Positions 12,475 through 37,412 of a stretch of DNA of 61,702 bases are shown here, in pieces. The notes under the pieces were generated by a model. It did no database searches, was not told the DNA's origin, and saw only the letters and a program-made list of their open reading frames with translations. This DNA is from Candidatus Woesearchaeota archaeon (GTDB lineage Archaea > Nanobdellota > Nanobdellia > Tiddalikarchaeales > Tiddalikarchaeaceae), in the NCBI GenBank assembly GCA_964457955.1, contig CAYWEY010000001.1, positions 38,277 to 99,978 on the forward strand. Direction: 5' to 3'. The translations under genes were made by a program, and so were the position numbers. Position 1 is the first letter of the stretch, and every line of letters starts with the position of its first letter.

Positions 12475-12882
12475 ATGAAAAAGAACAAGAAGAAACTAAA
12501 AAAAATATTTGGAGCAGCACTTCCAGTCATACTTATTGCAATATTGATAGGAACGAGTTTCCAAGTATTCTTAACAAACAACAATAATAGTGGTGGAGGA
12601 AAGAAACCTGTAACAATATATTTGGGTTTCAGAATAAATAACCAAAGTTATCCTTATCAGCCAGTTAATACTTATGAAAACACCAGTATTGCACAATTAT
12701 TATATACATACACTAAAGGAGGAGTAAGTCTTCAGAGTGATGGCAGCATAAAATGTATAGGAAATATATGCAACAGCATACAAGAGAATAGTTTCTGGAC
12801 AACCAAAGTTAATAATGAGACAATAACAGATAATAGAAGAGAATTAAAACAAAATGATTACGCGTTCTTAATATATGAATAA
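12475..12882 (+). CDS. membrane-anchored small protein, DUF4430-like C-terminus (tentative)
   Basis: K-rich N-terminus plus one TM helix (IFGAALPVILIAILIGTSF). The C-terminal pattern FWTTKVNNETI...LKQNDYAFLIYE resembles the W.y.vNg...l.dGD.i.f.y pattern of DUF4430. Confidence 0.45.
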   Translation: MKKNKKKLKKIFGAALPVILIAILIGTSFQVFLTNNNNSGGGKKPVTIYLGFRINNQSYPYQPVNTYENTSIAQLLYTYTKGGVSLQSDGSIKCIGNICNSIQENSFWTTKVNNETITDNRRELKQNDYAFLIYE

Positions 12883-21078: not shown

Positions 21079-21303
21079 ATGTGCATGGCTTATCCTGCCC
21101 GGGTTAAGGAGAAATCCTCTGATTATTCAATAATTCAGACAATGAATGGTGGGGAGAAGAAGATTAAACCCTGCCCTGTACCAAATATTGGTGAGGATGA
21201 TTACGTTCTTGTTCATAATAAGAATATTGTTCAGAAAATAAGTTATGAAGATTTTAAAAAAATAAAGGAAGAATATTCTGCACTAAAAGAATTAGACTGT
21301 TAG
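21079..21303 (+). CDS. hypC: [NiFe] hydrogenase maturation chaperone HypC/HupF family
   Basis: N-terminal MCMAYPARV (the MC..(V/I)P consensus with the essential Cys2) and GEDDYVLVH (the GDyVLVH core). 74 aa. Confidence 0.7.
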   Translation: MCMAYPARVKEKSSDYSIIQTMNGGEKKIKPCPVPNIGEDDYVLVHNKNIVQKISYEDFKKIKEEYSALKELDC

Positions 21304-22462
21304 GGAATAATCCGAACAGTATTATGGAGATTATTAGAAGAGTTATAACAATTTTCTGATTCAGACTTAATTCTATATCTTCTATCCTCCTTTTCTTCTT
21401 GAAAAGAATGTATAATGTGTTTATGTAATAAACACTTGAAATCACAAGATTCATTATCATTATTAATGAGAATAATAAATTATTGCTTCCTAATAGTATT
21501 AATGCTTCGCTTACGAATAATGCTAGTCCTGGAATACTGCTCATGGATAAGAATGATATTAATAATCCTGCACTTATGTAAGGATTTGTTCTTGCGATTC
21601 CTTTAAGCCCTTTTATTGTTGTATTATTTGACTCTTTTATTAATATGAATACTGTTATGAATGCGAGTGTAACCGTGAATCCATGACTTATTATATGGTA
21701 TAAAGAACCAGTTAGTGCTTGTGTTGAGCCCAAACTGAATCCGAAAAGTATTATACTTAACTGAGCTATACTGCTGTACGCGAGAAGTGTTTTAATATTT
21801 TTCTGCACTAACGCACTTATATTCGCTAAAGTCATACTCACCAATGCAATTATTGTTAACACTAATCCATACTCTGTGAATAAATTATAGAATTTGAAGA
21901 GAGCCAATCCCCCTATCTTGCTTAGTATTGCTGAAAATATTATTACAACACTTAGTTTTGCTGTTGAATAAACTTCAGGAACCCACATATGAAAAGGCAC
22001 TATTCCCATTTTCACAGCAAGTCCTATAAATATTATTAAAAGAATTATAATATGGGGTGCAGGTATGGAAAGCATGCTTATTCCTAACAATAATAAACTG
22101 CTTCCTATAGTACTTAATATGAAATATTTCAGCAGGACAAGAAGTTTTTCTCTTTTCTTCTCGAATAATAAGAAATAAGAGCATATTAGACACCATTCAA
22201 AGTACAAAAAGATTTCAAGAAAATCTTTTGCATATATTAATCCATACGCTCCTCCAAGAAGAAAGAAGTAAAGCGCATAATCTATTGGATTAATCTCTTC
22301 ATTCATTAAAGTAATGATAAGGATTATTATGATGAAGAATACGATATAAATATTTGATGACAGGAATAATAAAATAAGTAGCAGGGTGATTGTTAAGTAC
22401 TTATTTTTTTTAAAAAAACTTGTTAGTAGTCCTGACATAAAGAAGATGAAAACTTTTATCAC
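21254..22462 (-). CDS. Mrp/NuoN-like antiporter-type membrane subunit
   Basis: GIVPFHMWVPEVYSTAKLSVVIIFSAILSKIGGLALFKF matches the NuoL/M/N-MrpD core motif P.H.W.P(D/E).... Polytopic. Confidence 0.8.
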   Translation of the reverse strand: MIKVFIFFMSGLLTSFFKKNKYLTITLLLILLFLSSNIYIVFFIIIILIITLMNEEINPIDYALYFFLLGGAYGLIYAKDFLEIFLYFEWCLICSYFLLFEKKREKLLVLLKYFILSTIGSSLLLLGISMLSIPAPHIIILLIIFIGLAVKMGIVPFHMWVPEVYSTAKLSVVIIFSAILSKIGGLALFKFYNLFTEYGLVLTIIALVSMTLANISALVQKNIKTLLAYSSIAQLSIILFGFSLGSTQALTGSLYHIISHGFTVTLAFITVFILIKESNNTTIKGLKGIARTNPYISAGLLISFLSMSSIPGLALFVSEALILLGSNNLLFSLIMIMNLVISSVYYINTLYILFKKKRRIEDIELSLNQKIVITLLIISIILFGLFPNSLILLVQNILPLFF

Positions 22463-23835
22463 GGAATCACTCCATTAAGCAGTTTTATTAATGGTTCTGG
22501 ATAAACTCCCGTAATTATGATAAGCACCGCAAGTATTACCTGCACTATTTTTGCTTCAAAAGATGGTTTTCTTATTTTCGGAAATTTATTACGCTGGCTT
22601 ATAATACTTTTTACAAGAATTATGAAATAACTTAAAGTAATTACTCCTGCAAAAATTGCAGCACTAATCATAAAGAATCCTTGCTCAATTACGTGTTCAA
22701 ATATTAATAATTCTGATACAAAACCATTCAGTAAAGGCATTCCTATAAGACTGAAACTTGCTGTTATTAAACATGCTGAGGTGAGGAATAATTTTTTCAT
22801 AACTCCTTTTAATTCTTTTATTTTTCTTGTCTTCACTGAATAAATATAAGTGCCTGCGCAGAGGAATAATAATGATTTACATAATGCATGAGTGATTACG
22901 TGCAGGGCTCCACCCACATTATCTATTCCTAATAGTACATAACCCATCTGACTTACTGTACTGTAAGCAAGCATTCTCTTAATATCATCCTGCACTAGTG
23001 CCATGAATCCTCCGTAAATCATTGAAGCAAGAGCCAAGTACTTAATTAAGGTGAAATCGTATTTAAAAACTATTAAGAGTATTCGTATTATTCCATAACC
23101 ACCCATTCCAACCATTAAACCGCTTAGCATTGCACTTACAGTGCTTGGTGCTTCACTGTGAGCGTCGGGCAGCCAGTTGTGCAAGGGGAATACTCCCATC
23201 TTTATCAAGAATCCTGTTAAGAATAATGATGAAATATTCCATGGAATAGTTTTTGACTCTAATTCAATGAATTCAAAACTCGAATATGTTGAGTAAATCC
23301 ATAAAATGCTTATGAGTATTAATAATGCGCCTATGTGCATATAAATAAAGTATTTCAGTCCTATACTTCCCTTATTTTTTGTATGCCCATAATACGATAT
23401 TAAAAAATATGCTGGTATAATCATTACTTCAAGAAACATATAGAATTGTATGAAATTAGTTGATAAGCATAATCCGAGCATTCCTACTGCAAAAAAATCG
23501 AGGAGTGAGAAGAATTTTTTAGGCTTCTTCTTCTCCATCCTCAGCGCATAAACTTGGCATAATACACTTATTATCATCACAGTAAGCGAGTAAAGAAATG
23601 ATAAACCATCAAGACTTAAGTCAAAACTTATATCCATTGAAGGTATCCATGAATATTCTTCAACAATTGTTCCATGCGTAAGTATTTGAGGTGTGTTTAA
23701 TAATAATATTAGTGTGCCTAGACTCATTGAAACTATTATTAAATAAACTGATAATTCTTTTTTCTCAAAATCAAGAAAATAAGATAATAAACCCCCTATT
23801 AATGGAATAATTATTGTCCACACAAGAAGAGTCAT
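22459..23835 (-). CDS. MrpD/NuoM-like antiporter subunit (MbhH-like)
   Basis: GVFPLHNWLPDAHSEAPSTVSAMLSGLMVGMGGYGIIR is the canonical proton-pumping antiporter-subunit motif. About 14 TM helices. Confidence 0.85.
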   Translation of the reverse strand: MTLLVWTIIIPLIGGLLSYFLDFEKKELSVYLIIVSMSLGTLILLLNTPQILTHGTIVEEYSWIPSMDISFDLSLDGLSFLYSLTVMIISVLCQVYALRMEKKKPKKFFSLLDFFAVGMLGLCLSTNFIQFYMFLEVMIIPAYFLISYYGHTKNKGSIGLKYFIYMHIGALLILISILWIYSTYSSFEFIELESKTIPWNISSLFLTGFLIKMGVFPLHNWLPDAHSEAPSTVSAMLSGLMVGMGGYGIIRILLIVFKYDFTLIKYLALASMIYGGFMALVQDDIKRMLAYSTVSQMGYVLLGIDNVGGALHVITHALCKSLLFLCAGTYIYSVKTRKIKELKGVMKKLFLTSACLITASFSLIGMPLLNGFVSELLIFEHVIEQGFFMISAAIFAGVITLSYFIILVKSIISQRNKFPKIRKPSFEAKIVQVILAVLIIITGVYPEPLIKLLNGVIP

Positions 23836-24722
23836 AAGAATAATCCTCCTAACAGCACCAATATTATTCCTATCATTATAAACATCACATCCCTATTAAT
23901 AGTGTTCTTCTGCAATGAAACAGCTGTTTTTCCAAAACCAAAAATATTGTATATGAAATACTTTGTTGTATTATCGATTAATTCATCTAAGAATTCTGAA
24001 ACATCTGAAAGCGAGAGGAATAATTTTATGAAATTATCATGAATTTTTATAAATATTTCATTAATTGCTTCAATTATATTTTTCTTCTTTTTCTTACCAT
24101 CAAGTTTTTTCACTAATTCTTCCATAAAATAATAATTAATTTCTCTCTTGGATAAGAAACTCATTAGTATTCCTGAAATAATTCCGAAAAGAGAGAGTGA
24201 AAGGAATAATACTATTATTATTGTCTGAAACAATGTATAATCATAAAATATTATTTCTTTTGTTGTAATTCTTGAGAAATAAGCCATTAAAAGAATCATG
24301 ATTAGTGAAGAAATATTGCTCATTAGTAACAAGTCAAAAACATACTTATCTCCTATTATGATACTGTAACCAAAAATCATTAACGCCCAGAACAAGTAAA
24401 CAAGGAATACGTTGTTAAGATTTAGGATTGCATAAAAAAGCAATAATTCTATAAGCATTATTGTTGAGAAAGTATTAATATATTCATAATCTCTGCGCGA
24501 CTTAATAATCAACCATGTAAGAAGTAATCCTGTGAATAATATTAATAATATTCCTGACTCTTCAAGTATGAAGAAAGCAAGAACTGCTAGTAATACGATT
24601 TTTGTCAACCAACTTATTCTTGCTCCAGCATTAGATAATGATACATTCACTAATACTGTTCCTATCAATAAGATTATGCTTATTATTTCAAGAGGAACTT
24701 CACCCACTGCAGCTATTATCAT
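23832..24722 (-). CDS. membrane subunit of the Mrp-like module (unassigned)
   Basis: Polytopic, with 4-nt overlaps on both sides with Mrp-like genes. Confidence 0.5.
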   Translation of the reverse strand: MIIAAVGEVPLEIISIILLIGTVLVNVSLSNAGARISWLTKIVLLAVLAFFILEESGILLILFTGLLLTWLIIKSRRDYEYINTFSTIMLIELLLFYAILNLNNVFLVYLFWALMIFGYSIIIGDKYVFDLLLMSNISSLIMILLMAYFSRITTKEIIFYDYTLFQTIIIVLFLSLSLFGIISGILMSFLSKREINYYFMEELVKKLDGKKKKKNIIEAINEIFIKIHDNFIKLFLSLSDVSEFLDELIDNTTKYFIYNIFGFGKTAVSLQKNTINRDVMFIMIGIILVLLGGLFL

Positions 24723-24949
24723 TCCTCACCCACCTCTCTTAACTTAGCGTACCGCCATATGTAATGGGAGAGGATTAGGACGATTCCGAGACTTCCTGCT
24801 TCAATACTAAGAACAATTAATCCACTTATTTCATTACTGATGCTGGCAAATACCAGCATACTAGGATAATTCAATAATCCTATGAGTATCACTATTTTCA
24901 ACAAATTCTTCTCAGTGCTTAATCCATAAATTATTAATCCTATAATCAC
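24719..24949 (-). CDS. small membrane subunit, MrpC/NuoK-like (tentative)
   Basis: 76 aa with 3 hydrophobic helices. EKNLLKIVILIGLLN resembles the NuoK/MrpC segment. Confidence 0.45.
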   Translation of the reverse strand: MIIGLIIYGLSTEKNLLKIVILIGLLNYPSMLVFASISNEISGLIVLSIEAGSLGIVLILSHYIWRYAKLREVGEE

Positions 24950-24971
24950 AAAACTCGTGAGTATGAAGTAA

Positions 24972-25169
24972 TTAATCGCTTATCACCTTCTGAACTCCTA
25001 TTATGACTGAATAAATTATGAAACTGATTATGACAGGATAAGGCGTGTTGAACAAGTTTTCCGGACTAGTCACTTCGTCAGGAATGCTTAATCCTATTCC
25101 ATAATAAACCATTAATCCAATTATGATTACTGCAAGCAGTATATTATATTTCTTCATTCTCAACACCAC
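24972..25169 (-). CDS. small membrane protein of the Mrp-like module
   Basis: 65 aa, 2 hydrophobic helices, in the array. Confidence 0.4.
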   Translation of the reverse strand: MVLRMKKYNILLAVIIIGLMVYYGIGLSIPDEVTSPENLFNTPYPVIISFIIYSVIIGVQKVISD

Positions 25170-25374
25170 TATGGATTGAATAAAATACTATTGTGAAACT
25201 AACTGCTGAAACAAACTGGAATACGCTTAAATAATACATTCTTTTAATCCAGAAAAGAATTGCCATAAAGAATCCTGCACTATAAAACCAGATTATGCTG
25301 TTGCTGGATAATTTTGAAAATATTACTAAAAGAACACATATTATTAGTAAGATTAAAAAAAAGTTCTCTATCAT
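25144..25374 (-). CDS. small membrane protein of the Mrp-like module
   Basis: 76 aa, 2-3 hydrophobic helices, 25 nt downstream of the GTPase-like gene. Confidence 0.4.
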   Translation of the reverse strand: MIENFFLILLIICVLLVIFSKLSSNSIIWFYSAGFFMAILFWIKRMYYLSVFQFVSAVSFTIVFYSIHSGVENEEI

Positions 25375-25399: not shown

Positions 25400-26956
25400 T
25401 TAAAAATATTCCTGAAAAAAGTTGTTTAGTTTTTCTTTAGGCATTAATAAACTCTTTGCCACGTTTCTCAAAACTTTTTGTCTGGAACCGACTTTTTCAA
25501 CAGCAGTACTTATTGCTTTTTTGGTGACTCCGAAAGTTTTTTCAAAATCTTCAAAACTACTGCATTTCTCCAGTTTTTCACCAACACTATTCTTCCACGA
25601 TTCCTTCATTTCTATCAGTCTTTCAGCACGATAATAGAATCCTTTATCAGGATGTGATTCTGTGTTCTTAATTTTTATCCCAAATTTTTCAGGAAATATG
25701 CTTCCCGCCATTTCAGAAAATAATTTTAAATCCAGATTATCTTCCCTTACTTCACCATCAATATAGAACAATTCTTTCTTTATCTTAACCGAGTAAATAT
25801 CAGGAGCAACTGTTAGAGTCAGATTATACCAGGTAAGGCCTTCAATTAAGTGTTGGTTTGCTCTTAAGTTTGCTGTTTTTCCTGCACCTCCTGAACCATA
25901 CATTACTGATTTTGCTGCTCCTCCCAAATGCCCCATATCCTGCATATCCATCACATACCTTAATAATAATGGGAATAATCTACAGTTAACAAAATCAAGG
26001 CAGGGTCTTGCTGAAGTCATTATTGTTCCAATAATATTTGATTCCCCAACCTCATCTGTCTCTATTAATTTATTCCAATTCATTAAGTTGCCAATATTCT
26101 GGAGCAGTGATGTTATTTCTGAATTATGGGAAGGGTCTTCAGTTATGAAACTTAATCTCTTGGATAAGTCATAAAAGTCTTCCCACATATTACTATTATA
26201 AATAAAATCATTCCATTCCTTGAATGAAAATATTTCTTTAGTGAATTCGCTGTCTTCTTCAGAACCAAGATATTCTTCAACACTTTTCTTAACATTATTC
26301 CATGGCAGGATTTTTTTCAGCATATTAAATGATTTGTTCCATTCTTCATTAACATATTCTCTGGTGAATACTTTTTTTGCTCTTTTCAAAAAGAATTCTC
26401 CTTTCCTCTCATCCTGGTCAATACTGTACTTATTATTTATTCTCTTAATACTTCCTTCCTTATCCTCCAAATCTATTAAGGAATCAAGATGGGTTTTAAC
26501 AAGAACTAAAGTATGATAATTTTTCGGCAAGTGTTTGATATAAAAATTTCTCTGAGTATCATTATAATAATCTATGAGAGTATCAAGTGTTCTTAAATGC
26601 CTTGTTATATCACTGAATGCCATTCCATAAATGGCTCCCCCTGATACTGCTGTTCCTTTCTGTAAAAAATCTGCGAACCTATTCTGTCCTGCAGTATCCC
26701 ACATCTGCAGTCTTGATGCTGGAGTGTCTGGATCGTACTCGAAACCATTCACTATATCACCTAATCCTTCAATTCTCTGCATCATTAAAGACAAGTCATC
26801 ATAATTCTCTACTGTAAAATTATGCATTAAGTACCCTACTAATTCTTTTCCAGATATGCTGAATTTCTCACCAACCTTATTAAAATAATTAGTATATTCT
26901 GAAGAATCTATTTTTAATTCTTCCATAAATTTTTCACCATAATTTTCATATTCCAT
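25400..26956 (-). CDS. Ras/Rab-superfamily-related protein with non-canonical motif order (518 aa)
   Basis: LQMWDTAGQNRF (DTAGQ at aa 87-91, nt 26684-26698) closely matches the Rab switch-II motif WDTAGQERF. Canonical Walker A GSGGAGKT sits at aa 354-361 (nt 25874-25897), i.e. downstream of G3. Only a degenerate P-loop-like GEKFSISGKE (aa 29-38) occupies the expected G1 position. Confidence 0.6.
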   Translation of the reverse strand: MEYENYGEKFMEELKIDSSEYTNYFNKVGEKFSISGKELVGYLMHNFTVENYDDLSLMMQRIEGLGDIVNGFEYDPDTPASRLQMWDTAGQNRFADFLQKGTAVSGGAIYGMAFSDITRHLRTLDTLIDYYNDTQRNFYIKHLPKNYHTLVLVKTHLDSLIDLEDKEGSIKRINNKYSIDQDERKGEFFLKRAKKVFTREYVNEEWNKSFNMLKKILPWNNVKKSVEEYLGSEEDSEFTKEIFSFKEWNDFIYNSNMWEDFYDLSKRLSFITEDPSHNSEITSLLQNIGNLMNWNKLIETDEVGESNIIGTIMTSARPCLDFVNCRLFPLLLRYVMDMQDMGHLGGAAKSVMYGSGGAGKTANLRANQHLIEGLTWYNLTLTVAPDIYSVKIKKELFYIDGEVREDNLDLKLFSEMAGSIFPEKFGIKIKNTESHPDKGFYYRAERLIEMKESWKNSVGEKLEKCSSFEDFEKTFGVTKKAISTAVEKVGSRQKVLRNVAKSLLMPKEKLNNFFQEYF

Positions 26957-26964
26957 TTTTTTTA

Positions 26965-29595
26965 TTACACCTCAATAATATCTTCCCATTTTATATTATC
27001 ATATACTTTGGGAGCATTTTTTTTAATAATATTCTTAACCATATTCCTTGCATTCCTTAAAGGAGTTAAGAAATCTCCTCCTTCTTTATCTCTTTTAAGG
27101 ATTAGTTTGACTTTTTTTGAAATACTGGGCAGTTTTCTTTCAAAACATTCATAAAGTTCTTCTCCTAAAAACTTTCTGAAAACTTCTCTCTTTTCTTTAA
27201 TATTTTCAAGAGTTGAAGGATCATTTATATAATTAGTGCAGTATCCTGCTTTATTCTCCAGAATAATTTTCTTCAATCTTTTTTTATTACTTAAAACATT
27301 TTTTAGTTTGTAATAAATTCCTCCTGCTTTTTTCATGAATGAGTACTTAATCTTTTCAGGAGTTGATAATAACTGGTTAGAGAATAATCTTTCTATTCCT
27401 TCAGGTTCGGATTCAATTATATTCTTAACTTCTTCTGAACTTCTTTCTCCCATTTCAGGATTCTTGTAAGATAATTCTTCGAAAGCTATTTTTTTCTTAA
27501 TCTTTTTTCTCGCCTCTCCATAAGTTATTTCTCCAACACTTGCGAGAGTAACGGATTTCTTAATATAATCAACCAAGTTTTTTGAGAGATTAACCGAGTC
27601 GGATAATTCTTTTGAGAAACGATTAAGAGGATTATGTCTTCCTTCTTTCAAAACAAGTTCTAAATAAGATTTCACTGTTCCTGATGAATAATTGATTAGT
27701 GAAGGATCTTTTATTATTTCGTTAAGATTATAATTTTTAATGAATTTGGATAATTCATAAACCTCCTTAACCCTATCTTCCATAATAAGGTGTTCGTATT
27801 TTGTTAAGAATTTTTCAGGAATCTCGGATAATTCTTTTTTTTCAAAAATGTAAGGGGATTCTCTTGGTGAGAAAAAATACAGTTCGTTCCTGTACTTCCA
27901 GTTCATTAATTCTGTTTTTGAGCCATTAAATTTTCTCTCACTAACTTTCTTGTAAGAATGTATTAGGAAAGCAGTTACTGCTGCTGCTGAAATAACTGCT
28001 GATACGCCGAATAAGAACTGGTTTTCCTGAAGTGCTTTTTCAAGCCCGGATGTTTTATCTTCCTCCTTACCCAATTCTGACTCAGATTGGTCTATTTCTT
28101 CATTAGTATCCTTATAATTCTCATAATCCTCATGCGCTTCAAGCCCTTTTTCAGTCCATTCCTCATCAGGATAATCTCCATAATCATCATCTATTTCCCC
28201 GTCATTGTTCTGGTCAGCATCCACATATCCATCATAAGGGTTGAAATCTCTTATTCCATCACCATCCGTGTCTTCAACAGGGTCGCCGTGCACTGCTTCA
28301 TAATTTGCGCAGCTCTCGTACTCGTAACGATTCACACTAAAACTCTCAAAATACTCATCCCTCTCAATTTCCAATGCTTCTATCTCCTGCTCTTTCTTTT
28401 CAATATTCTCCTGATTAGTATCATATGCGTCTTGTGAACTCGCCATATTAGTGTAGGTTAGAAGTGTTAGTACTGCGCTCGCAGCCACTCCCACTCCTTC
28501 AAGAACTGTTCCTTTTGTTCCCATCCTTATTGCTTTAGGCGCGTACTTTGCTCCCGGAACTTTGTTTAAAAACTTTGAAGTTTTAGAATTAATTTTTTCA
28601 AAGTATTTTTTGAATTTGGAGGGTTCTTTCAATTCTTTGCTTACGTATGGGAGTATGATTGATGCATTAGGATATTCTTTAACCAGTTCTTCCAATCCTT
28701 TTGTTCTCTTATAATCTCTGTTGAGAACAAAATCATCATATAATTTTTCATATTTTTTTATGATTTGGTAGAATTTCTGGATTCTTTTCTGGACAGAATT
28801 AATTTCTGGCGGGCTTCCCACAAGTTTTATTCTTGTTTTAGGATTATATGGTGTTTTTGCACCTAATGATTTCACATAACCTTCTGTGTTCTCCGGATCA
28901 AGAAATATTCTTTCATCTATTTCAAAATTCAGCATTCTTTCTTTAATACCCATATAACTTAGTGTTTCAATAGTTCTAGCGAGTCTCTGTATAGAGTTCT
29001 TATTATGTGATGATTCAAGTACTGCACTTATTTCTCCTTCGTGTGAAAAATCTCCATTAATAACTGATATTTTTGCTAATTGTCCTCTGTAATCATACTT
29101 TATTATTTTGTCAGGCTCTTTATCCAAGTATTTCAAATCAGTGATTTCTTTTCTTAATTCTTTGATTGTTTTATAATCCTCTTTCTTTTTTACTTCAGAA
29201 GTTTTCTTATCTCTATTCTTTTTATCAATTATTTTTATTCTCTCTTCCAACCCATTTATTTTTTCTCCTAAAATTTTTCTCCTATTATTCTCGTATTCTT
29301 CGAATGTTTTTCTTTTAACATCATAATGTGCTGCTATTATTTCTTCATCTATTTCTTCATTTTCAAGAAGATATGCTTCTACAGGAGGGTCTCTCATTGT
29401 TCCTGAAGAATCAATTGTTGTAACATAATGTGTGCCACTAACAGGACAGTCATAACCGAAAGTAGCAATATCATCAATGATCCTGTTTAAAGAATATTCA
29501 TGAATGTTTCCGCATTTACATTCTATCTTCGTTTTAGTCAATGTTATACTCTCAAAAAAATAAAATACTTTTAAATATTTGTCATCATTAGTCAA
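26965..29595 (-). CDS. 876-aa two-TM membrane protein with N-terminal Cys cluster, coiled coil and acidic DxDxDG loop
   Basis: TTG start. CKCGN...DCPVSGTH near the N-terminus. Hydrophobic helices at about aa 362-384 and 527-547. Between them lies an acidic loop with DTDGDGIRD and DADQNNDGEIDDD. 8-nt gap to the GTPase-like gene. Confidence 0.65.
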   Translation of the reverse strand: MTNDDKYLKVFYFFESITLTKTKIECKCGNIHEYSLNRIIDDIATFGYDCPVSGTHYVTTIDSSGTMRDPPVEAYLLENEEIDEEIIAAHYDVKRKTFEEYENNRRKILGEKINGLEERIKIIDKKNRDKKTSEVKKKEDYKTIKELRKEITDLKYLDKEPDKIIKYDYRGQLAKISVINGDFSHEGEISAVLESSHNKNSIQRLARTIETLSYMGIKERMLNFEIDERIFLDPENTEGYVKSLGAKTPYNPKTRIKLVGSPPEINSVQKRIQKFYQIIKKYEKLYDDFVLNRDYKRTKGLEELVKEYPNASIILPYVSKELKEPSKFKKYFEKINSKTSKFLNKVPGAKYAPKAIRMGTKGTVLEGVGVAASAVLTLLTYTNMASSQDAYDTNQENIEKKEQEIEALEIERDEYFESFSVNRYEYESCANYEAVHGDPVEDTDGDGIRDFNPYDGYVDADQNNDGEIDDDYGDYPDEEWTEKGLEAHEDYENYKDTNEEIDQSESELGKEEDKTSGLEKALQENQFLFGVSAVISAAAVTAFLIHSYKKVSERKFNGSKTELMNWKYRNELYFFSPRESPYIFEKKELSEIPEKFLTKYEHLIMEDRVKEVYELSKFIKNYNLNEIIKDPSLINYSSGTVKSYLELVLKEGRHNPLNRFSKELSDSVNLSKNLVDYIKKSVTLASVGEITYGEARKKIKKKIAFEELSYKNPEMGERSSEEVKNIIESEPEGIERLFSNQLLSTPEKIKYSFMKKAGGIYYKLKNVLSNKKRLKKIILENKAGYCTNYINDPSTLENIKEKREVFRKFLGEELYECFERKLPSISKKVKLILKRDKEGGDFLTPLRNARNMVKNIIKKNAPKVYDNIKWEDIIEV

Positions 29596-29615
29596 TAAGT
29601 AATAAATTATTTAAT

Positions 29616-31667
29616 ATGGAGATAATAAGTTCTTCTTTAATTATTATGAATAAGAAAACTTTTTTTATAATCTTACTGTTTCTATCAGTTAGTATTGGTT
29701 TTTGTGAGAATCTTCAGTGCGCTGCTGAACTCCAGAATACTCCTGGAGTATGTATAGATAAGAAGTATGATATGCTTTCAGGAGACATTGCTTACTGGGG
29801 ATGCAACACTATTCTCCACCAGAACGGGAGATGGTTTTATTATGAGAAATGCAAAGCAACTATCAGCAGCATGACTAAGAAGACAAAGGAAGGGAATTAT
29901 GTTGCTGAAGCATGGACTAATAATAATGCTCCTTTATCAAAATGCTCTTCTTACAACGGCTGGGCGTGCGATGTCTATCCTGGCGAGCCGAGCGGTTCTG
30001 GTTTTGACAGTGATGATTCTCATAGTGACAGGGGATATTGTGATGCCAGTGATGGCAACTGCGTCAAGTGCAACAATAATAATATTGAGACTAAGAAATG
30101 GGATGGTGGTGCTTCAATAAGCGGGAGTGGTGATTATAAATGCGAGAGTGGTTGCGGCGCCCACCCTCATTGTGATGAATTATTTCCTGGTAATAATACT
30201 GGAAGTTGTTTTGGTGTTTTTGAAACTCGATGCACGAGTAGTTGTGGAGCAGTAAGTGATTCGTGCGAGAGTGATTGTGGTGCTCATAACTTGTGCGATG
30301 AGCTTAATCCTAACAGTGTTTGCGTGACTGATTACTGCGATGAGCATAATCGTTTGGTGGATTATAATGGTGATTATTATCTTAACAGCAACACATGCAC
30401 CAGTACTTGTGATTGTGATAATATTGTTGACAACACATTGTGCGATAGTGATGACTGCGGAGCAAGCACTGAATGCAATAATAAAGAGTTGGGTTATAAT
30501 ACTGGTAATAGTGGTTGTGATACTAATTGTTATTGGCAGGATTGCGGAATGTATGCTTGGAACACTAATAATGATGAATGTTATACTAGTTGCTCTCTGA
30601 ATTCTCATTGTTATGAATCTGTATGTAATGATTATACGAGTGATTGTGTTATGGATGGTGAGAATCCTATAATACTCATCAATCAACCTATTGATGATTC
30701 CAGGAATAATGAGGATATTGTTCTTGAATTCTATATTAATGACAGTGTTGACGGCGAGCTTGACTGTTCTTATATTCTTGACTCCACTATTTCTTATATT
30801 GGTGAATTAGTTAGTGGCAATACTTATCAGGAAGATATTACTTGCGATGAGGAATGGCATACTTTGAGTGTGAATTGTTCTGATGATGCAGGTAATCATA
30901 ACCTGACTATTCCCGTGAGTTTCTTGTACGATACTACTCCTCCTGATTATTCACACCAGTCCTGGACTGATATTACACCAACTCCGGATAATACACTCAT
31001 AACTGGTGATGAAGTAAGGTTGAGTGTTTACTGGACGGATAATTTTGAGCTCGACAATAGTACTTTGCAGATTAAGCCCGAGCATGGTGGTTGGAGTGAT
31101 GAGGAAGTAATAGAGCATAATCTTACTTCAAGCAGGTGGAGCAACTTCACTCTTAACACAAGCAGTTATGGTGACGAGCTTATTGAGTGGCGTGTCAAGA
31201 CTCTTGACAGCAGTGGGAATGAGAGAGTGTCTGATACTATGAGTTTTTTTGTGAATACTCCTTCTGCTGAAATCACTATCACGATATACGAAGTTGGAGG
31301 AGATATTAGTGATGTTTTTGAATTCTCTGGTGACGCGAAACCAGTTGTGGATAAGCCTGCTGATGACAGCAACAGCACTGAATTCATCGGTGACTTCACA
31401 ATTGAGCACGTGGGTATAGGTACTTTGATTAATAATAGTTTTTACTTGAATAATTCAATGAGTAGTGGTATTATTATGAAGGTTAGTGATAATAATGATG
31501 CAGAAAATTCTGTGATTCTTTCTGACAGTCCTAAAAATGCAGGATTCTGCAATGGTATGATTAGCGGGGATACCTGCCAGGTCTGGTTGTGGATGGATTT
31601 GGATAAAGCAACTCCTCCGCAAGTCCAGAATAATAGGGTGATGGTAGAATCAGTGAGTGTGGAATAG
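29616..31667 (+). CDS. secreted Cys-rich surface protein (683 aa from the track start; signal peptide begins at M11, nt 29646)
   Basis: MNKKTFFIILLFLSVSIGFC signal. Three copies of the C(E/D)S(G/D)CGA...C(D/N)E module. Downstream beta-rich domains include a YWTDNFELD module. Confidence 0.7.
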   Translation: MEIISSSLIIMNKKTFFIILLFLSVSIGFCENLQCAAELQNTPGVCIDKKYDMLSGDIAYWGCNTILHQNGRWFYYEKCKATISSMTKKTKEGNYVAEAWTNNNAPLSKCSSYNGWACDVYPGEPSGSGFDSDDSHSDRGYCDASDGNCVKCNNNNIETKKWDGGASISGSGDYKCESGCGAHPHCDELFPGNNTGSCFGVFETRCTSSCGAVSDSCESDCGAHNLCDELNPNSVCVTDYCDEHNRLVDYNGDYYLNSNTCTSTCDCDNIVDNTLCDSDDCGASTECNNKELGYNTGNSGCDTNCYWQDCGMYAWNTNNDECYTSCSLNSHCYESVCNDYTSDCVMDGENPIILINQPIDDSRNNEDIVLEFYINDSVDGELDCSYILDSTISYIGELVSGNTYQEDITCDEEWHTLSVNCSDDAGNHNLTIPVSFLYDTTPPDYSHQSWTDITPTPDNTLITGDEVRLSVYWTDNFELDNSTLQIKPEHGGWSDEEVIEHNLTSSRWSNFTLNTSSYGDELIEWRVKTLDSSGNERVSDTMSFFVNTPSAEITITIYEVGGDISDVFEFSGDAKPVVDKPADDSNSTEFIGDFTIEHVGIGTLINNSFYLNNSMSSGIIMKVSDNNDAENSVILSDSPKNAGFCNGMISGDTCQVWLWMDLDKATPPQVQNNRVMVESVSVE

Positions 31668-31751
31668 AAAAGTTTTTAATAAAAAATCTTTAAAGTGAAA
31701 AATAAGATGGTTTCGAAAAATTTAATAAAAGAAAAGACGTTATATATCGAA

Positions 31752-32387
31752 ATGAAGAAATTGCTTTGTTTTATTTTTGTATTATTTTTCATTCCTAATA
31801 TCGGGTTTAGTTCAAATCCTGCTTGCACTGAAAGAGCAGGTTATTATTTATGGCATTGTGATAATAATAGTCCTGGAATAAGCATTAAACCAGGTGAAAC
31901 TGGAACATTAATATTAAAATGCTGTTACACAGGACCTGGACTCAAAAACAGCAATAAAACTTACAATATTAACATTGAGAAAAAATCAGAATATTCAAGA
32001 AATGTTCAACAACCAAATGGTAGTTGGTTAATGATGTATGAACATTATCCTGCAACAAAATACATAACTAATATCAATTATGATTCTGAAATAACTCCTT
32101 ATGAACCTGTTGAAATAAAAGTAAATTTTAGTTTACCAAGATACGAAGAAATTTACAAATTAAATGGAGTATTAATTGCAAGAATTGATGTTAATCTTGA
32201 TAGTCCGGGCGCATTTATTTATAGTAATAGAGTTGATATGAGAGTAATAATCCCTTCCAGTTATAAACCCCCGTTAATTAATACTTTATTCACTTTACTT
32301 GCAGGCAATTATGTTGCTGGAATAATGGGTTTAGTAATGCTAATATTAAGCATCATATTATATTTTAAAGTTACCTCAAAAGAATAA
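31752..32387 (+). CDS. secreted protein with C-terminal TM anchor
   Basis: Track ORF 31695 starts at GTG. The ATG at 31752 gives the signal peptide MKKLLCFIFVLFFIPNIGFS. C-terminal helix GIMGLVMLILSIILYF. Confidence 0.55.
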   Translation: MKKLLCFIFVLFFIPNIGFSSNPACTERAGYYLWHCDNNSPGISIKPGETGTLILKCCYTGPGLKNSNKTYNINIEKKSEYSRNVQQPNGSWLMMYEHYPATKYITNINYDSEITPYEPVEIKVNFSLPRYEEIYKLNGVLIARIDVNLDSPGAFIYSNRVDMRVIIPSSYKPPLINTLFTLLAGNYVAGIMGLVMLILSIILYFKVTSKE

Positions 32388-32408
32388 CAACAAAACTTTA
32401 AAAATAAT

Positions 32409-32987
32409 ATGGGTTTTATTTTATTACTTATGAAAAATAGTTTAACTATATTTTTAATAATTGGTTTACTTTTAGGTATTTCAACAGTAATGGCAGATAC
32501 AGAAATAACTGATGAGCAGAGTTTAGCATTCAGAATAGAGATAGTGAAGGATTGGACTATTGCTGTTCCTGCTCTTTGCGAAGATGCAGATAATACAATA
32601 GATGGTACTTTGGAATTTTCTCCTTCAATTGAAGGGGTCTGGACTGACGGCTCCAGGCCTGATGATGGTTGTGGAGATGCTAATCTTGGAGATTATAACG
32701 TTACTAACGAGGGAAATGTCCCTATAGACTTGAATTTCAGACTAAATGATACTGCGCCTCAAGGAGTAACAATTGCTCTAGGAAACAATCTTACTTATGC
32801 AGAAATCGGAGACCATAGTTACTTCAACTTAACAACAGGAGATCAGAATCCTTCATGGGGGCAAAGTATATCAGCAACAGGAAGTGACACAGTTCAGATA
32901 TGGCAGAGAGTTGGAGCAAATGATACAGCAATAGGTGGAGATTCCTATATGAGACAAATGGTAATAACAAGTAGTGATGCAAGTTAA
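32409..32987 (+). CDS. secreted protein (192 aa), related to the C-terminal domain of 29616..31667
   Basis: Signal peptide. The NVTNEGNVPIDLNFRLN...VQIWQRV pattern parallels FTIEHVGIGTLINNSFYLN...CQVWLWM. Confidence 0.55.
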   Translation: MGFILLLMKNSLTIFLIIGLLLGISTVMADTEITDEQSLAFRIEIVKDWTIAVPALCEDADNTIDGTLEFSPSIEGVWTDGSRPDDGCGDANLGDYNVTNEGNVPIDLNFRLNDTAPQGVTIALGNNLTYAEIGDHSYFNLTTGDQNPSWGQSISATGSDTVQIWQRVGANDTAIGGDSYMRQMVITSSDAS

Positions 32988-33049
32988 ACCGAAAGAGTTT
33001 TTAATTTCTTTTTTTTATCTTTTTTTATTATTTTATCGATTGTGAGAAT

Positions 33050-33751
33050 ATGGAAAAAAAGATATTAATATTGTTCATGTACTTGTTCTTGCTTAGTCCT
33101 GCCTTATGCCAGACGAATGGTTACATAAATTTTATGATAACTCTTGATTTCGAGCCTCCGCAGTATTCCTTATTAAGTTCTAACACTATCAGCATTAATA
33201 ATATTGGTGAGAGTATTGAATTCAGTGCTTACTGGACTGATTACGAACTTGGGGATTACAAGTTCTCATGGAACATAACCAACACTTTCGAGAACAGCAG
33301 TAATCAGGAATACGTGAACGGATGGAGTAATGAGACAAGAACAATAAATAATGCTAATTATGAAGGAAGGAGTGTTGGATGGAAGTATTACGGGTTTGAC
33401 GCGAACAATAATCTTAATACAACAACCATAAAATATTTTGACATAATTAGTGAAGAACCCGAATACTCTCAAATTAGTCAGGACAAGGACACTCCAGCAG
33501 AAGGAGAAGTTGTGAATATAAGTAGTTACTGGACGGATAATTTTGAAATCGACCACGTGGACATTCTCACGAACGAGACCAGTAGTTGGGAGACGCATGA
33601 CACAGTGAATATTAATGACGTTAGTGGTTGGGCGAACTTCACATACGACACGACAGGACACTCTGGAGAAACAATATGGTGGAGAGTTAATGGTTATGAC
33701 GCGATAAGCACTAATACAATAAGCACAACTCACAGTTTCAGTGTTCAATAA
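33050..33751 (+). CDS. secreted protein with two YWTD(N/Y) modules
   Basis: Signal peptide MEKKILILFMYLFLLSPALC. FSAYWTDYELGD and SSYWTDNFEIDH repeat the module seen in 29616..31667. Confidence 0.65.
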   Translation: MEKKILILFMYLFLLSPALCQTNGYINFMITLDFEPPQYSLLSSNTISINNIGESIEFSAYWTDYELGDYKFSWNITNTFENSSNQEYVNGWSNETRTINNANYEGRSVGWKYYGFDANNNLNTTTIKYFDIISEEPEYSQISQDKDTPAEGEVVNISSYWTDNFEIDHVDILTNETSSWETHDTVNINDVSGWANFTYDTTGHSGETIWWRVNGYDAISTNTISTTHSFSVQ

Positions 33752-34677
33752 AAATAAATAGACAAGACTAATAATAAAAGACTAAGTGGCAAATAAGTCG
33801 TCCAGCCAGTCCTGACCGCGTCATCAATACTATACCTATTATTGCTTGCGCTGTAAAAACTAAGCAAGAAGACAACTAAGAAGCTCATGAGCCACGGATT
33901 CCATGGGAGGAAGACACTGCTCAACAAGAAACTTATTAAAAAGAGTTTAATATTCTCAGCATAATTAATCACTGCAAGGAAAGGGCCGCCGTACTCAGTC
34001 ATCCATCCTCCAGCAATCTCCTGCGCAGCATGAGGAATATCAAAAGGCACCATCTCCACTTCTAATAAAGAGATGAAGAAAGCAGGCAGGAACAACAACA
34101 AATTATAAGGATTAAACGATTGATTGATTAAGAAACTATTATTATTTAAAGCAGGAATCAGGAATAATACAATAAGAGGAAATTCAAAACTAAGTTTAAG
34201 AATCAGGTTTCTTCCACCACCCACTATTGCATAACGATTCTTACTAGCGTACGCAAGCATCCATATAAAAACACTGTCCAACAACAAAATAGTGAAAATT
34301 ATTAATAATCCATAACTTGAGTCTAAAAAGAAGTAAGAACATAACAAAACTATTACTCTGAAGAAAGGAATAAGCATATACCACGATTTCCTCACACTCC
34401 TCGGAACAATCAATTCCTTACTTAATAACTTGAAGAAGTCATAAAAAGGCTGAAATAATGGAGGGCCCACTCTCTGCTGAGAATAAGCTCTTACTTTACG
34501 CTCAACCCATTCAAAAAAGAAAGGGAATAATAAGAATAAGACTAACTTAATAATTTCACAACACCCCCTAATTGTAAAGTTGTAAGAAGCAGGACAAATA
34601 AGAATAATGACGCGTTCACATTCTCCTCCAATACTCCTATAAAAATAATAAGTCCATGAAGAGCAAGAAAAACACAC
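33745..34677 (-). CDS. mbhM: NuoH/MbhM-like membrane subunit, main body (lacks its own ATG start)
   Basis: FEWVERKVRAYSQQRVGPPLFQPFYDFFKLLSKE matches the NuoH/HycD consensus (ERK..a..Q.R.GP....Q...D..Kl..KE). The frame opens only with a GTG lying inside the upstream fragment. Confidence 0.75.
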   Translation of the reverse strand: MCFSCSSWTYYFYRSIGGECERVIILICPASYNFTIRGCCEIIKLVLFLLFPFFFEWVERKVRAYSQQRVGPPLFQPFYDFFKLLSKELIVPRSVRKSWYMLIPFFRVIVLLCSYFFLDSSYGLLIIFTILLLDSVFIWMLAYASKNRYAIVGGGRNLILKLSFEFPLIVLFLIPALNNNSFLINQSFNPYNLLLFLPAFFISLLEVEMVPFDIPHAAQEIAGGWMTEYGGPFLAVINYAENIKLFLISFLLSSVFLPWNPWLMSFLVVFLLSFYSASNNRYSIDDAVRTGWTTYLPLSLLLLVLSIYFY

Positions 34678-34763: not shown

Positions 34764-35056
34764 TTCTTAATCACGTTCTCAAACTCATTAGATGGCCTTA
34801 TACAATTAACAGGACACACCCTACCGCACTCACCGCAACTAATACAACGCTCCTGCTCAACAACAATCTTCCTCTCCTTATTGAAAGACAAGCACTTTGT
34901 AGGACAATTAATTATGCACTTCGCGCAACTAATACACATACTAGCATCATAATACAACTTATTCCCCTTCCACTCCTTACTCATACGAGTCTTCTTGAAA
35001 GGATACCTAATAGTATATCTCTTACTCAAGAAATTCTTAACCATCCTTATAATCAT
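34760..35056 (-). CDS. mbhN: 2x[4Fe-4S] ferredoxin-type subunit (NuoI/MbhN-like)
   Basis: CISCAKCIINCP and CISCGECGRVCP are two CxxCxxCxxxCP motifs. Confidence 0.85.
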   Translation of the reverse strand: MIIRMVKNFLSKRYTIRYPFKKTRMSKEWKGNKLYYDASMCISCAKCIINCPTKCLSFNKERKIVVEQERCISCGECGRVCPVNCIRPSNEFENVIKK

Positions 35057-35436
35057 AAATCATCCACCAATTTCTTAATACCATTAATAATACTCTCTGG
35101 TCGCGGAGGACATCCCGGAATAAACAAGTCAACATCTAAATCAATTCTTTCATCTCTGAAAACATTACCACTACTCGGACAATTACCTACTGCTATAATT
35201 TTTTTAGGCTCAGGAACCTGGTTTATTATTCTCTTAGCGCGTAATACTCCTTTCTCACTCCCACTCCCTGTCAAGAGCACAATATCTGCATGCCTCGGGC
35301 TCTCAACAAAAACACACCCCAATCTTTCAATATCATACTTAGGAGTAAGAATATTCAATACTTCTACTTCGCAACCATTACAACTCCCTATACTTACTTC
35401 ATAAATCCACGGACTCTTCTTAATCCATCTCAACAT
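35053..35436 (-). CDS. mbhJ: [NiFe] hydrogenase small subunit, NuoB/MbhJ-like
   Basis: GSCNGCE, GNCPSSG and IPGCPPRPE are the four Cys ligands of the proximal [4Fe-4S] cluster in NuoB-type subunits. Confidence 0.9.
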   Translation of the reverse strand: MLRWIKKSPWIYEVSIGSCNGCEVEVLNILTPKYDIERLGCVFVESPRHADIVLLTGSGSEKGVLRAKRIINQVPEPKKIIAVGNCPSSGNVFRDERIDLDVDLFIPGCPPRPESIINGIKKLVDDL

Positions 35437-36550
35437 AACTTACCTCATCATCCTCATTAATAACAGTTATTCTATCACAGCAAGCAAAGCAAGGATCAAT
35501 ACTATTAACTATTACAGGAACATCACACAATTCAGAATTCTTGCACATTACAGGAACCGCCTGCAAATTAGCATAAGTAGGTGCTCTTATTCTGATAAAA
35601 GAAGGATTTCCTCCACCACTGCTCTCCACATAATGAAAATCTTCACCCCTCGGAGCTTCCTTAATATTAGCACTCTTGCCTTCAGAAACTTTGTCAATCC
35701 TGTGCCACAAAATATTTCCTTCAGGAATATTACTCAAGCATTGTGTTATTATCTTAATAGACTCGAGCACTTCCTTCAACCTAACTCTCGCCCTCCCATA
35801 ACAATCACCCGTCTTCTCCTGAACAAGCTTGAAATTAATATCAGGATAAACAAGGTAAGGATTAGTCTTACGCGCATCAACATACAATCCGCTTGCTCTT
35901 GCAGTCGGACCAACCACTCCTAACTTCTTAGCCTTATGCTGTGAAAGTACTCCAACACTTTTCCATCTTGAATGAATAGTGTTGTTAGTGTCAACTTCCT
36001 GAACTAATTCTCTTACAGGATTAACTAATTTCTTAATATCTCTCCTAATTGACTTATTCTTATTTTTTGAAATATCAAAACGGACACCCCCAGGAACATT
36101 CATGCCTGGAAACATTCTTGAACCGCAAACTTTTTCAACAAAATCCATGAACTTAGTTCGAATCTTCCAGGACTCCATGAAAAGTGTCTGGAAACCAATA
36201 TTATTCGCTGCAGTACCAAACCATAATAAATGATTCTGAATTCTCTCGAGTTCTGTTACTATAGTCCTAATATATTTTGCTCTCTCACTTACTTCATAAT
36301 CCATCATTTTCTCAACATTAGTTACAAAACACAATGTGTGAGTAGTACTGCATATCCCGCAAATCCTCTCAATCAAATAAAGTGCTTTATTCCACGTCCT
36401 TTTTGTGACTAATTCTTCAATACTCCTATAATTATAACCAAGTTTCATATCCACCTCCTTCACTAACTCACCCTCCACACGCACTTTAAAATACTCAGGC
36501 TCGTGAATTCCAGGATGATACGGACCTATAGGAATATTAAACTGGCTCAT
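35420..36550 (-). CDS. mbhL: group-4 [NiFe] hydrogenase large subunit (MbhL/NuoD-like), Ni-ligand cysteines intact
   Basis: RICGICSTTH (L1 motif RxCGxCxxxH) and DPCFACCDR (L2 motif DPCxxCxx[H/R]). Start set at MSQFNIPIGPYHPG (ATG 36550-36548), which forms an ATGA overlap with the upstream stop. Confidence 0.9.
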   Translation of the reverse strand: MSQFNIPIGPYHPGIHEPEYFKVRVEGELVKEVDMKLGYNYRSIEELVTKRTWNKALYLIERICGICSTTHTLCFVTNVEKMMDYEVSERAKYIRTIVTELERIQNHLLWFGTAANNIGFQTLFMESWKIRTKFMDFVEKVCGSRMFPGMNVPGGVRFDISKNKNKSIRRDIKKLVNPVRELVQEVDTNNTIHSRWKSVGVLSQHKAKKLGVVGPTARASGLYVDARKTNPYLVYPDINFKLVQEKTGDCYGRARVRLKEVLESIKIITQCLSNIPEGNILWHRIDKVSEGKSANIKEAPRGEDFHYVESSGGGNPSFIRIRAPTYANLQAVPVMCKNSELCDVPVIVNSIDPCFACCDRITVINEDDEVSYVEMD

Positions 36551-36801
36551 TCTTCCGTGAACAACCTCTCTAATCGTGGATGATTCTTGAATTTTAGTCC
36601 GGACTTCTCCCATATTTCGCGCTCATAAAAACCTGCGTTAGGAAATAAGGGAGTGATGCTATCTGTTTTCTTAACAGCTTTCACACGCGCCTCCGCCAAC
36701 TTGTTGCCAATCATGAAGTGATAAATAAGGACGGGTTCATTATAACTAATAGTGATGAGACGCGCTCCCTTACTTTTTAGTTTCTCAAAATCAACCTTCA
36801 T
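36547..36801 (-). CDS. mbhK: short NuoC/MbhK-like subunit (84 aa)
   Basis: SITPLFPNAGFYEREIWEKSGLKFKNHPRLERLF matches the NuoC core (s....fp.a.w.ERE..d..G..F.gHP). Only about half the usual length. Confidence 0.6.
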   Translation of the reverse strand: MKVDFEKLKSKGARLITISYNEPVLIYHFMIGNKLAEARVKAVKKTDSITPLFPNAGFYEREIWEKSGLKFKNHPRLERLFTEE

Positions 36802-36821: not shown

Positions 36822-37376
36822 TTAATTGTTAAGTTTTTCCTCCTCCATATTTACTTTCTTTAATGATGTTCTCGTAGCCGGGCTTGAAGGAAGGAAAGGA
36901 CACTTAGTTGCTTTCACACTAAATTCGTAAGTCCCTATATTTTTTGCTATACTTATTATCTCATTCTTATTAAATCCTATGAGTGGTCGGAGAATAGGAG
37001 TACTTACTGCTGAATCAAGAACTCTCAAATTCTTCAACGTCTGACTAGCAACCTGGCCAAGATTTTCTCCAGTAATAATAAAATCAACACCCTGTTCTTC
37101 AGCCTTCCGGTACATCATACGTTTGCATATAATACAACGATATTTGGGTTCGCACTTATCAGCAATCTTTTCCAGCATCTTATAATGATTATAATACATT
37201 GTTCTCAACTCTTTTCCCGTAACTTTACTTAACTGCTCTTTCATCCTCTCCACATTAATATTTTTTTCTCCATCAGGACTTCCATTAAGTAATACTGGAT
37301 TTAATCCTTTCTTAATCATCAAGTAAGCTGCTACAGGACTATCAATACCCTCACTAATTAATGCCACTGCTTTCAT
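36822..37376 (-). CDS. stand-alone ThiI-type PP-loop ATPase domain (no THUMP)
   Basis: ALISEGIDSPVAAYLM (PP-loop SGGxDS with the first G replaced by E), TGENLGQVASQT, RPLIGFNKNEI, and Cys residues CIIC plus KCPF. Confidence 0.7.
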   Translation of the reverse strand: MKAVALISEGIDSPVAAYLMIKKGLNPVLLNGSPDGEKNINVERMKEQLSKVTGKELRTMYYNHYKMLEKIADKCEPKYRCIICKRMMYRKAEEQGVDFIITGENLGQVASQTLKNLRVLDSAVSTPILRPLIGFNKNEIISIAKNIGTYEFSVKATKCPFLPSSPATRTSLKKVNMEEEKLNN

Positions 37377-37412
37377 AAAAATATAAAATACTGTGAATCA
37401 TTAATAACTTTT

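Follow-up and report, generated by a model that had tools for sequence, protein, structure and literature searches.

The stretch of DNA considered here, 61,702 nucleotides (nt) of contig CAYWEY010000001.1 from a Candidatus Woesearchaeota archaeon and referred to as the window, encodes on its minus strand between positions 25400 and 26956 a protein of 518 amino acids (aa), P0001. A large membrane protein is encoded directly upstream in the same orientation, followed by four divergently transcribed genes for proteins with signal-like N-termini (Table 1). P0001 contains LQMWDTAGQNRF at aa 83-94 including DTAGQ at aa 87-91 (nt 26684-26698), THLD at aa 155-158 (nt 26483-26494), GSGGAGKT at aa 354-361 (nt 25874-25897) as the sole Walker A motif of the open reading frame (ORF), and TWYNLTLTVAPDIYSVKIK at aa 375-393. 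These strings had been pointed out in a sequence-only reading of the window, and all of them were verified by translating the exact coordinates. Taken by itself, P0001 scores below threshold with established GTPase models. Pfam Ras yields 17.6 bits (cut-off 21.6) and Pfam Roc 18.0 bits (cut-off 27), both for aa 70-109 only, while NCBIfam small_GTP gives an E value of 0.1 and a phmmer search of PDB an E value of 0.06 or worse. From one sequence alone, the match could thus have been due to chance. Other P-loop families, VWA and A2M gave no Pfam match in P0001 even at E values up to 1, and COR gave none either. On the evidence of the family alignments described below, the best overall explanation is that P0001 is soluble and built around a Ras-superfamily G domain that has undergone circular permutation, and we assign a probability of roughly 0.72 to this reading.

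Table 1. Features of the P0001 gene and its neighbours in the window. Family motifs and invariant residues refer to the P0001 family; AF2, AlphaFold2; pLDDT, predicted local distance difference test; TM, transmembrane.
Feature	Position	Strand	Characteristics
Whole ORF P0001	25400..26956	-	Soluble multidomain protein, probably with a circularly permuted Ras-superfamily G domain; no TM segment
N-terminal helical domain (aa 1-75)	26732..26956	-	Family motif FGxSxxELxGY, contains GEKFSISGKE; all helices in AF2, pLDDT 78-92
beta3 and G3/switch II, SRLQMWDTAGQNRF (aa 81-94)	26675..26716	-	Family consensus DxxGQx[RK][FY]; D87, G90 and Q91 invariant in all members spanning the region
beta4-alpha3-beta5 ending at G4 THLD (aa 109-158)	26483..26632	-	Family [TS][FH]LD, immediately behind a hydrophobic strand; L157 and D158 invariant; AF2 strands 110-116 and 149-155, helix 125-137
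Helical insert between G4 and G5 (aa 160-300, ~140 aa)	26057..26479	-	Present in long forms, largely absent in short forms; pLDDT about 80-93
beta6, G5 TSAR (aa 314-317), alpha5	25946..26041	-	Family SSA[RM]PCLGF (SSG in one member); S315 and P318 invariant; SSA opposite SAK in global hhalign and in the cpRAS alignment
beta1, G1 P-loop GSGGAGKT (aa 354-361), alpha1	25838..25912	-	Family GxGxxGK[TS]; G354, G356, G359 and K360 invariant; T or S at 361
W376, G2/switch I candidate T382, beta2	25760..25831	-	W376 invariant; T382 of P0001 falls in the family motif M[TS]xGV, which follows W376 and pairs with Rab TIGVDF
C-terminal region (aa 403-518)	25403..25750	-	PLNLEL, SW..YA..KI..C and YFGI motifs; helical from about aa 444
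Upstream co-oriented gene, 876 aa	26965..29595	-	8-nt gap to the P0001 gene; membrane protein, two DxDxDG motifs in an acidic loop that precedes a strong TM helix
683-aa Cys-rich protein	29616..31667	+	Divergently transcribed; signal-like N-terminus; orthologs 38-39% identical, same position in L004 and L005
230-aa protein	31695..32387	+	Signal-like N-terminus, C-terminal TM anchor; syntenic orthologs
192-aa protein	32409..32987	+	Signal-like N-terminus; syntenic orthologs
233-aa protein	33050..33751	+	Signal-like N-terminus; syntenic orthologs; repeat in common with the 683-aa protein

A survey of the distribution of P0001, one of the checks proposed with the sequence-only reading, was productive. 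Exhaustive phmmer searches of 1.84 billion cluster representatives returned six distant relatives (25-34% identity, E values from 1e-33 to 4e-6), and two further paralogs adjoining relatives in their contigs were found by synteny. When 5.8 billion proteins were searched by word index with P0001 alone, with the alignment of the whole family or with a consensus-headed core alignment, only the query came back; scans of genome, metagenome and viral contig collections gave no additional loci, and no second paralog of P0001 was found within the window. The contigs carrying family members stem from at least six different samples and an assembly artefact can therefore be dismissed. One member is on record as a hypothetical protein from an archaeon of the Candidatus Nanoarchaeia, which belong to the DPANN archaea, and the PolB protein encoded in the window is 49% identical to PolB of a Nanoarchaeota metagenome-assembled genome. 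Gene content of the window is of the archaeal type (PolB, NFACT, Lhr, Mrp/Mbh-type genes). The family is real but very rare and sits on Nanoarchaeia-type (DPANN) contigs.

Conservation was read from a nine-sequence alignment and a rearranged eight-sequence alignment of the family, in which the motif order G3-G4-G5-G1-G2 is conserved. The assignment of the DTAGQ region as a Ras/Rab-like G3/switch II motif and that of GSGGAGKT as the only canonical Walker A motif, both made at the outset, are borne out by the invariant residues listed in Table 1. As likewise noted from the beginning, the G4 position does not conform to [NT]KxD; N and K are absent from every member and only L and D are kept. The segment following the Walker A motif had been described as beta-strand-like. 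Its position is confirmed and it covers W376, T382 and a strand predicted at aa 388-392. Two other proposals did not hold. GEKFSISGKE (aa 29-38), considered as the counterpart of G1, is part of the confidently helical N-terminal domain with its own family motif and is no decayed P-loop, and LFSEMAGS (aa 412-419), taken for a weak G3, is not conserved as DxxG, the family reading PLNLELxxR there.

Family members come in two lengths. Short-form paralogs of 405-467 aa lack most of the region corresponding to aa 160-300, such that G4, G5 and G1 are found at near Ras-like spacing. On three other contigs, L003 (1325-4143), L004 (10001-13359) and L005 (7394-10686), a long form (534-632 aa) and then a short form are encoded as an adjacent pair and the two genes overlap by 4 nt in L003. 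The paired long and short forms, both of which carry all G motifs, suggest a heterodimeric pair. The long form only is present in the window and in the genome of family member P0002.

Homology of the family to Rab, Ran and Ras is significant at the profile level and is collinear only after un-permuting. In a hmmsearch against PDB, the native-order family profile matched Rab23 in two pieces of swapped order, profile positions 345-387 aligning with Rab23 5-43 (P-loop and TIGVDF) and 93-144 with Rab23 45-96. The permutation was then reversed in silico by placing aa 345-401 ahead of aa 76-175 plus 301-341 in every member. The un-permuted profile gave one alignment (4-108 to Rab23 5-96) with an E value of 7e-8. 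Next in rank among PDB entries were Rab6, Ran, a Thorarchaeota Rab, RhoG and MglA, the latter aligned over 3-137 to 12-144. With single sequences in native order, Pfam Ras and Roc matched from position 48 onward only, whereas alignments of single un-permuted sequences were contiguous from profile position 1 to 102-109. Testing P0001 against family models, as had been proposed, hence gave a divided answer, with the single native sequence staying below the Pfam cut-offs and the un-permuted profile clearly reaching Rab23.

Profile-profile comparison by hhalign yielded a similar picture. The comparator for canonical GTPases consisted of H-Ras, Rab7, Rab5, Ran and Rac1, which served as comparators only. 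The un-permuted family aligned with this five-sequence profile over columns 3-122 to 4-110 (probability 98.4%, E value 1e-14, score 94), while the native order reached a score of 58 for columns 5-63 to 52-110, the P-loop forming a second, separate match (146-158 to 5-17). The N-terminal piece supplies beta3-G3-alpha2-beta4-alpha3-beta5-G4 and, beyond the insert, beta6-G5-alpha5. The C-terminal piece contributes exactly the missing beta1-G1-alpha1-G2-beta2. Among the arrangements initially envisaged, which included a permuted and a duplicated domain, the profile evidence speaks for the permuted one, and duplication is contradicted by the complementarity of the pieces, none of whose elements is duplicated. 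The permutation break would lie in the beta2/beta3 hairpin, and the motifs are arranged in the order G3 (DTAGQ), G4 (THLD), insert, G5 (TSAR), G1 (GSGGAGKT) and G2 (T382).

The sequence-only reading had not recognized this architecture from described small-GTPase families. The order of motifs is, however, the same as in cpRAS, a eukaryotic RAS-family domain arranged as G3-G4-G5-G1-G2 (Elias and Novotny, 2008, Biol Direct 3:21, PMC2430557). An earlier survey had argued that such an arrangement should not fold, as stated in the same paper. When the native-order family was compared by hhalign with five cpRAS domains taken from the supplement of that publication, both were collinear over 143 columns (94.8%, E value 5e-8), spanning beta3/G3, G4, G5, alpha5, the linker, beta1/G1 and alpha1. 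In the control, the un-permuted family matched cpRAS at the P-loop only. Collinearity in native order and its loss upon un-permuting are as predicted for a shared permutation.

Structure prediction for P0001 depended strongly on the input. AF2 arrived at a pLDDT of 39 from the single sequence and at a mean pLDDT of 69.6 with a predicted template modelling score (pTM) of 0.69 from a multiple alignment of seven sequences. Helices of high confidence form aa 1-70 in the N-terminal domain, about aa 160-300 in the insert and aa 444-518 at the C-terminus. The order of elements in the model fits strand 81-85 as beta3, strand 110-116 as beta4, helix 125-137 as alpha3, strand 149-155 as beta5, the helices that follow as the insert, strand 307-313 as beta6, helix 359-372 as alpha1 and strand 388-392 as beta2. 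From the sequence profiles together with this order of secondary structure elements, we infer that both pieces pack into one G fold. A structural model had been proposed as a means of distinguishing one from two G folds. It delivered a fitting order of elements and low confidence for the switch II and P-loop regions. The N- and C-terminal domains have an FG[VI][ST] motif in common and were considered as an internal repeat; this was rejected on the basis of an hhalign probability of 1.7%.

Several observations count against a permuted G domain. The family alignment is small (8-9 sequences), the pLDDT drops below 50 at aa 79-109 (switch II) and 333-390 (alpha5-beta1-P-loop-alpha1), and a Foldseek search of PDB with the AF2 model gave no match with an E value below 1. 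Foldseek aligns in sequence order and therefore copes poorly with permutation, so that this search is uninformative for a permuted model that is in part of low confidence. In addition, the local hhalign alignments end before G4, which is assigned by its location behind beta5 and its conservation, and G4 of P0001 is devoid of the N and K of NKxD.

Assuming that both pieces form one G fold, a guanine nucleotide would be bound and hydrolysed. K360 and T361 are predicted to contact the phosphates, T382 and D87 would coordinate Mg2+, Q91 would be the catalytic residue and D158 would interact with the base. The new termini would flank switch I, with beta2 leading into the C-terminal domain, and switch II, with the N-terminal domain leading into beta3. 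In such a protein, the nucleotide state would alter how the two flanking domains are positioned towards each other.

It is conceivable that the permuted domain is real but functions as a pseudo-GTPase or with changed specificity, such that it binds ATP, binds a nucleotide without hydrolysing it or acts as a scaffold only. The loss of N and K from the G4 box of every member would agree with this, as would the uncertainty of the AF2 model around the nucleotide site and the presence in the window of a canonical-order Ras/Roc-like protein without P-loop and DxxG, which indicates that the lineage tolerates pseudo-GTPases. Conversely, G1, the hydroxyl residue of G2, G3 with its Gln, the Asp of G4 and G5 are all conserved at an overall identity of 25-30%, which speaks for selection to keep the nucleotide site functional. 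Moreover, THLD is also the G4 box of the LRRK2 Roc domain, which binds GTP, and nucleotide binding by P0001 is thus not precluded by its G4 sequence. We regard this alternative as unlikely. Because the motifs of the nucleotide site including the catalytic Gln are conserved in this way, the base-contacting Asp is retained and THLD has its precedent in LRRK2, we favour an active guanine-nucleotide switch over a pseudo-GTPase or altered specificity.

A different explanation would be that P0001 combines two unrelated pieces, an N-terminal Ras-like remnant devoid of a P-loop and a separate C-terminal P-loop NTPase of another class. The distance of about 190 residues between G4 and the P-loop, part of which is the helical insert, could be taken to point in this direction, and so could the P-loop region, which is not confidently packed in the AF2 model. 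The C-terminal piece, though, aligns specifically to beta1-G1-alpha1-G2-beta2 of Ras/Rab proteins including TIGVDF of Rab, and other P-loop families are missing from the Pfam matches. The family alignment lacks a conserved Walker B motif after Walker A. Furthermore, the segments are exactly complementary, the spacing in the short-form paralogs approaches that of Ras, and the native order is collinear with cpRAS right across the junction of alpha5 and beta1. All this renders a combination of unrelated pieces very improbable.

We have likewise considered that the family represents true cpRAS by descent, either because it was exchanged horizontally between archaea and eukaryotes or because both share an ancestor, in which case the permutation would not be of independent origin. 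Such a relationship could account for the identical motif order, the identical break point in the beta2/beta3 hairpin and the collinear alignment in native order. However, cpRAS is a typical RAS-family domain with TIE at G2 and NKxD at G4, is fused to VWA and is reported from eukaryotes only (PMC2430557), while the archaeal family features M[TS]xGV and [TS][FH]LD and lacks VWA. The family scores at least as well with Rab7 (65), Ran (60) and Rac1 (54) as with H-Ras (47) or un-permuted cpRAS (45-53), and in PDB it matches Rab23, Rab6 and Ran best, without any Ras among the top 60. Descent from cpRAS therefore appears highly unlikely to us. Finally, the chance co-occurrence of DTAGQ and GxxxxGKT in a low-complexity, AT-rich ORF, the outcome under which the original proposal would have collapsed and to which the sub-threshold scores of P0001 alone lend some plausibility, is refuted for practical purposes by the conservation of both motifs plus G2, G4 and G5 in homologs from at least six samples and by profile-profile E values of 1e-14 with canonical GTPases and 5e-8 with cpRAS.

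The surroundings of the P0001 gene provide hints at the process in which a permuted GTPase might take part. The 876-aa protein is the positional counterpart of proteins of ~960-1,190 aa encoded upstream of other family members. All have the same layout with a large N-terminal region that lacks a signal-like hydrophobic N-terminus, an acidic loop with two DxDxDG motifs and a strong TM helix. We take the large N-terminal region to be cytoplasmic. The arrangement recurs in L004 and L005, where the gene for a ~960-aa protein precedes those for a long form and a short form of the family, in this order, and where orthologs of all four secreted proteins are present (30-44% identity). Parts of it are found in L003, L006 and L008. 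Repeated Cys-rich motifs of the type C-E-S-x-C-G-A-x3-C-D-E-L characterize the 683-aa protein, for which no known domain was detected, and a repeat of roughly 85 aa with YWTDNFE[LI]D is common to this and the 233-aa protein (blastp E values from 1e-6 to 9e-10 across orthologs). Neither Pfam domains nor relatives in PDB were found by sequence for the neighbours of the P0001 gene, even when profiles of the ~960-1,190-aa and the 683-aa families were used.

The family proteins are free of TM segments and their neighbours possess signal-like or TM segments. Judged by synteny, the most economical reading would be a cytoplasmic GTP switch acting on a membrane/surface module. P0001 would act on the co-operonic 876-aa membrane protein and, by way of this protein, on the secreted or surface proteins of the four divergent genes. 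On the adverse side of the balance, P0001 is linked with the neighbouring genes by synteny only and sequence comparison detects no homology of the 876-aa protein to its positional counterparts. Homology among these large proteins was considered and could not be detected by sequence; it is only their architecture that is similar.

The six-gene module (25400-33751) is located between two blocks of genes resembling those for respiratory complexes. One flank comprises genes for NuoH-like (33745-34677), NuoB-like (35053-35436) and NuoD/[NiFe]-hydrogenase large-subunit-like (35420-36613) proteins, all on the minus strand. The other flank (21254-25374, minus strand) encodes two Mrp-antiporter-type subunits and several small hydrophobic ORFs. 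The module appears to interrupt a gene cluster for a membrane-bound hydrogenase of the Mbh/Mrp type, and such a cluster seems out of the ordinary in a DPANN-like genome. In genomes other than that of the window, the module lies next to other genes (AsnC, MscS, an MMR_HSR1 GTPase).

Further genes of the window deserve mention. The canonical-order Ras/Roc-like protein (40302-41114, minus strand, 270 aa) is recognized by Pfam Roc (6e-9) and Ras (3.6e-8) above the cut-offs and matches positions 20-103 only of the Ras profile. Its P-loop is gone (YKLKGVVRNPYLGLCDSFSS), G3 reads WNIGEQKRF, the G4 position is occupied by IIGFIDYD and a K/E-rich extension of about 150 aa is attached to the C-terminus. 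It looks like a Rab-like pseudo-GTPase. The gene adjoins one for a TrmB-type regulator (41182-41919). Three consecutive large ORFs of 632, 843 and 1325 aa (3179-11579, minus strand) have no match in Pfam and the same applies to two ORFs beside them (11579-12400, 273 aa; 12858-14033, 391 aa). Adjacent genes for ThiI-like (184 aa), ThiF-family (227 aa) and THUMP-ThiI (303 aa) proteins reside at 36822-38988. Together with a nearby gene for a class-V aminotransferase/cysteine-desulfurase-like protein (44666-45700) they resemble a set of genes for tRNA thiolation or sulfur relay.

To our knowledge, cpRAS is the only described case of the order G3-G4-G5-G1-G2; it occurs in few eukaryotes and has never been characterized experimentally. 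Another family permuted in the same way, and probably of independent origin, would demonstrate that the arrangement is recurrent and viable, and an archaeal family would show that it occurs in prokaryotes. Its small members, especially the short forms, may be easier to express for structural and biochemical work. Cell-cell interactions of DPANN-type archaea are poorly understood, and the conserved association of the family with one membrane protein and four secreted ones makes the gene cluster a candidate for a cell-surface module regulated by GTP. It is tempting to go one step further and to propose that the permutation arose independently in archaea and, by tying the switches to the flanking domains, created a self-contained GTP-driven mechanical switch that controls, via the co-operonic membrane protein, a DPANN-specific surface apparatus, possibly for host attachment. 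We consider this extended scenario possible but rather doubtful.

How does P0001 compare with known GTPases? The best sequence matches of the un-permuted family are Rab23, Rab6, Ran, Thorarchaeota Rab and MglA, and Rab/Ran-like GTPases resemble it in the DxxGQ motif with a catalytic Gln, a G2 motif of the T-I/V-G-V type and SA at G5. They differ by canonical motif order, by NKxD at G4, by the lack of a large insert and by being single domains of ~20 kDa, compared with several domains in the 518 aa of P0001. The Roc domain of ROCO proteins such as LRRK2 is similar insofar as Pfam Roc is among the best, albeit sub-threshold, matches, the G4 sequence THLD is identical and the G domain is part of a multidomain protein. 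P0001 is set apart from ROCO proteins by its permutation, and neither COR nor any other ROCO domain was detected with Pfam. Circularly permuted GTPases of the YRG/YlqF-YawG/RsgA type are P-loop GTPases whose permutation couples a switch region to an adjoining domain, as would be the case in P0001. Their motif order is G4-G5-G1-G2-G3, with the cut between beta3/G3 and alpha2, and they are ribosome-assembly factors present in all three domains of life (PMC2430557), whereas G3 lies upstream of G4 in P0001 and nothing about this protein points to ribosomes.

Among prokaryotic proteins, a GTPase of the order G3-G4-G5-G1-G2 is undescribed in the literature searched. The term 'circularly permuted' does not occur in a survey of prokaryotic Ras-superfamily GTPases (PMC4316618), and a literature search on circular permutation in archaeal Ras-like small GTPases brought up nothing relevant. 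The motif order itself has its eukaryotic precedent in cpRAS. Both domains have the beta2/beta3 hairpin broken and alpha5 joined to beta1, and both are embedded in larger proteins behind a short, non-homologous N-terminal region. Apart from the G2 and G4 motifs contrasted above, they differ in their context. cpRAS is fused to VWA or inserted in an A2M/COG2373-like protein and is reported from eukaryotes only (PMC2430557), while the P0001 family is archaeal, occurs on DPANN-type contigs, is without VWA or A2M matches, contains the helical insert of ~140 aa between G4 and G5 in its long forms and has different N- and C-terminal domains. The P0001 family also shows no special affinity to RAS proper. 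The permutation in the archaeal family is probably of independent origin.

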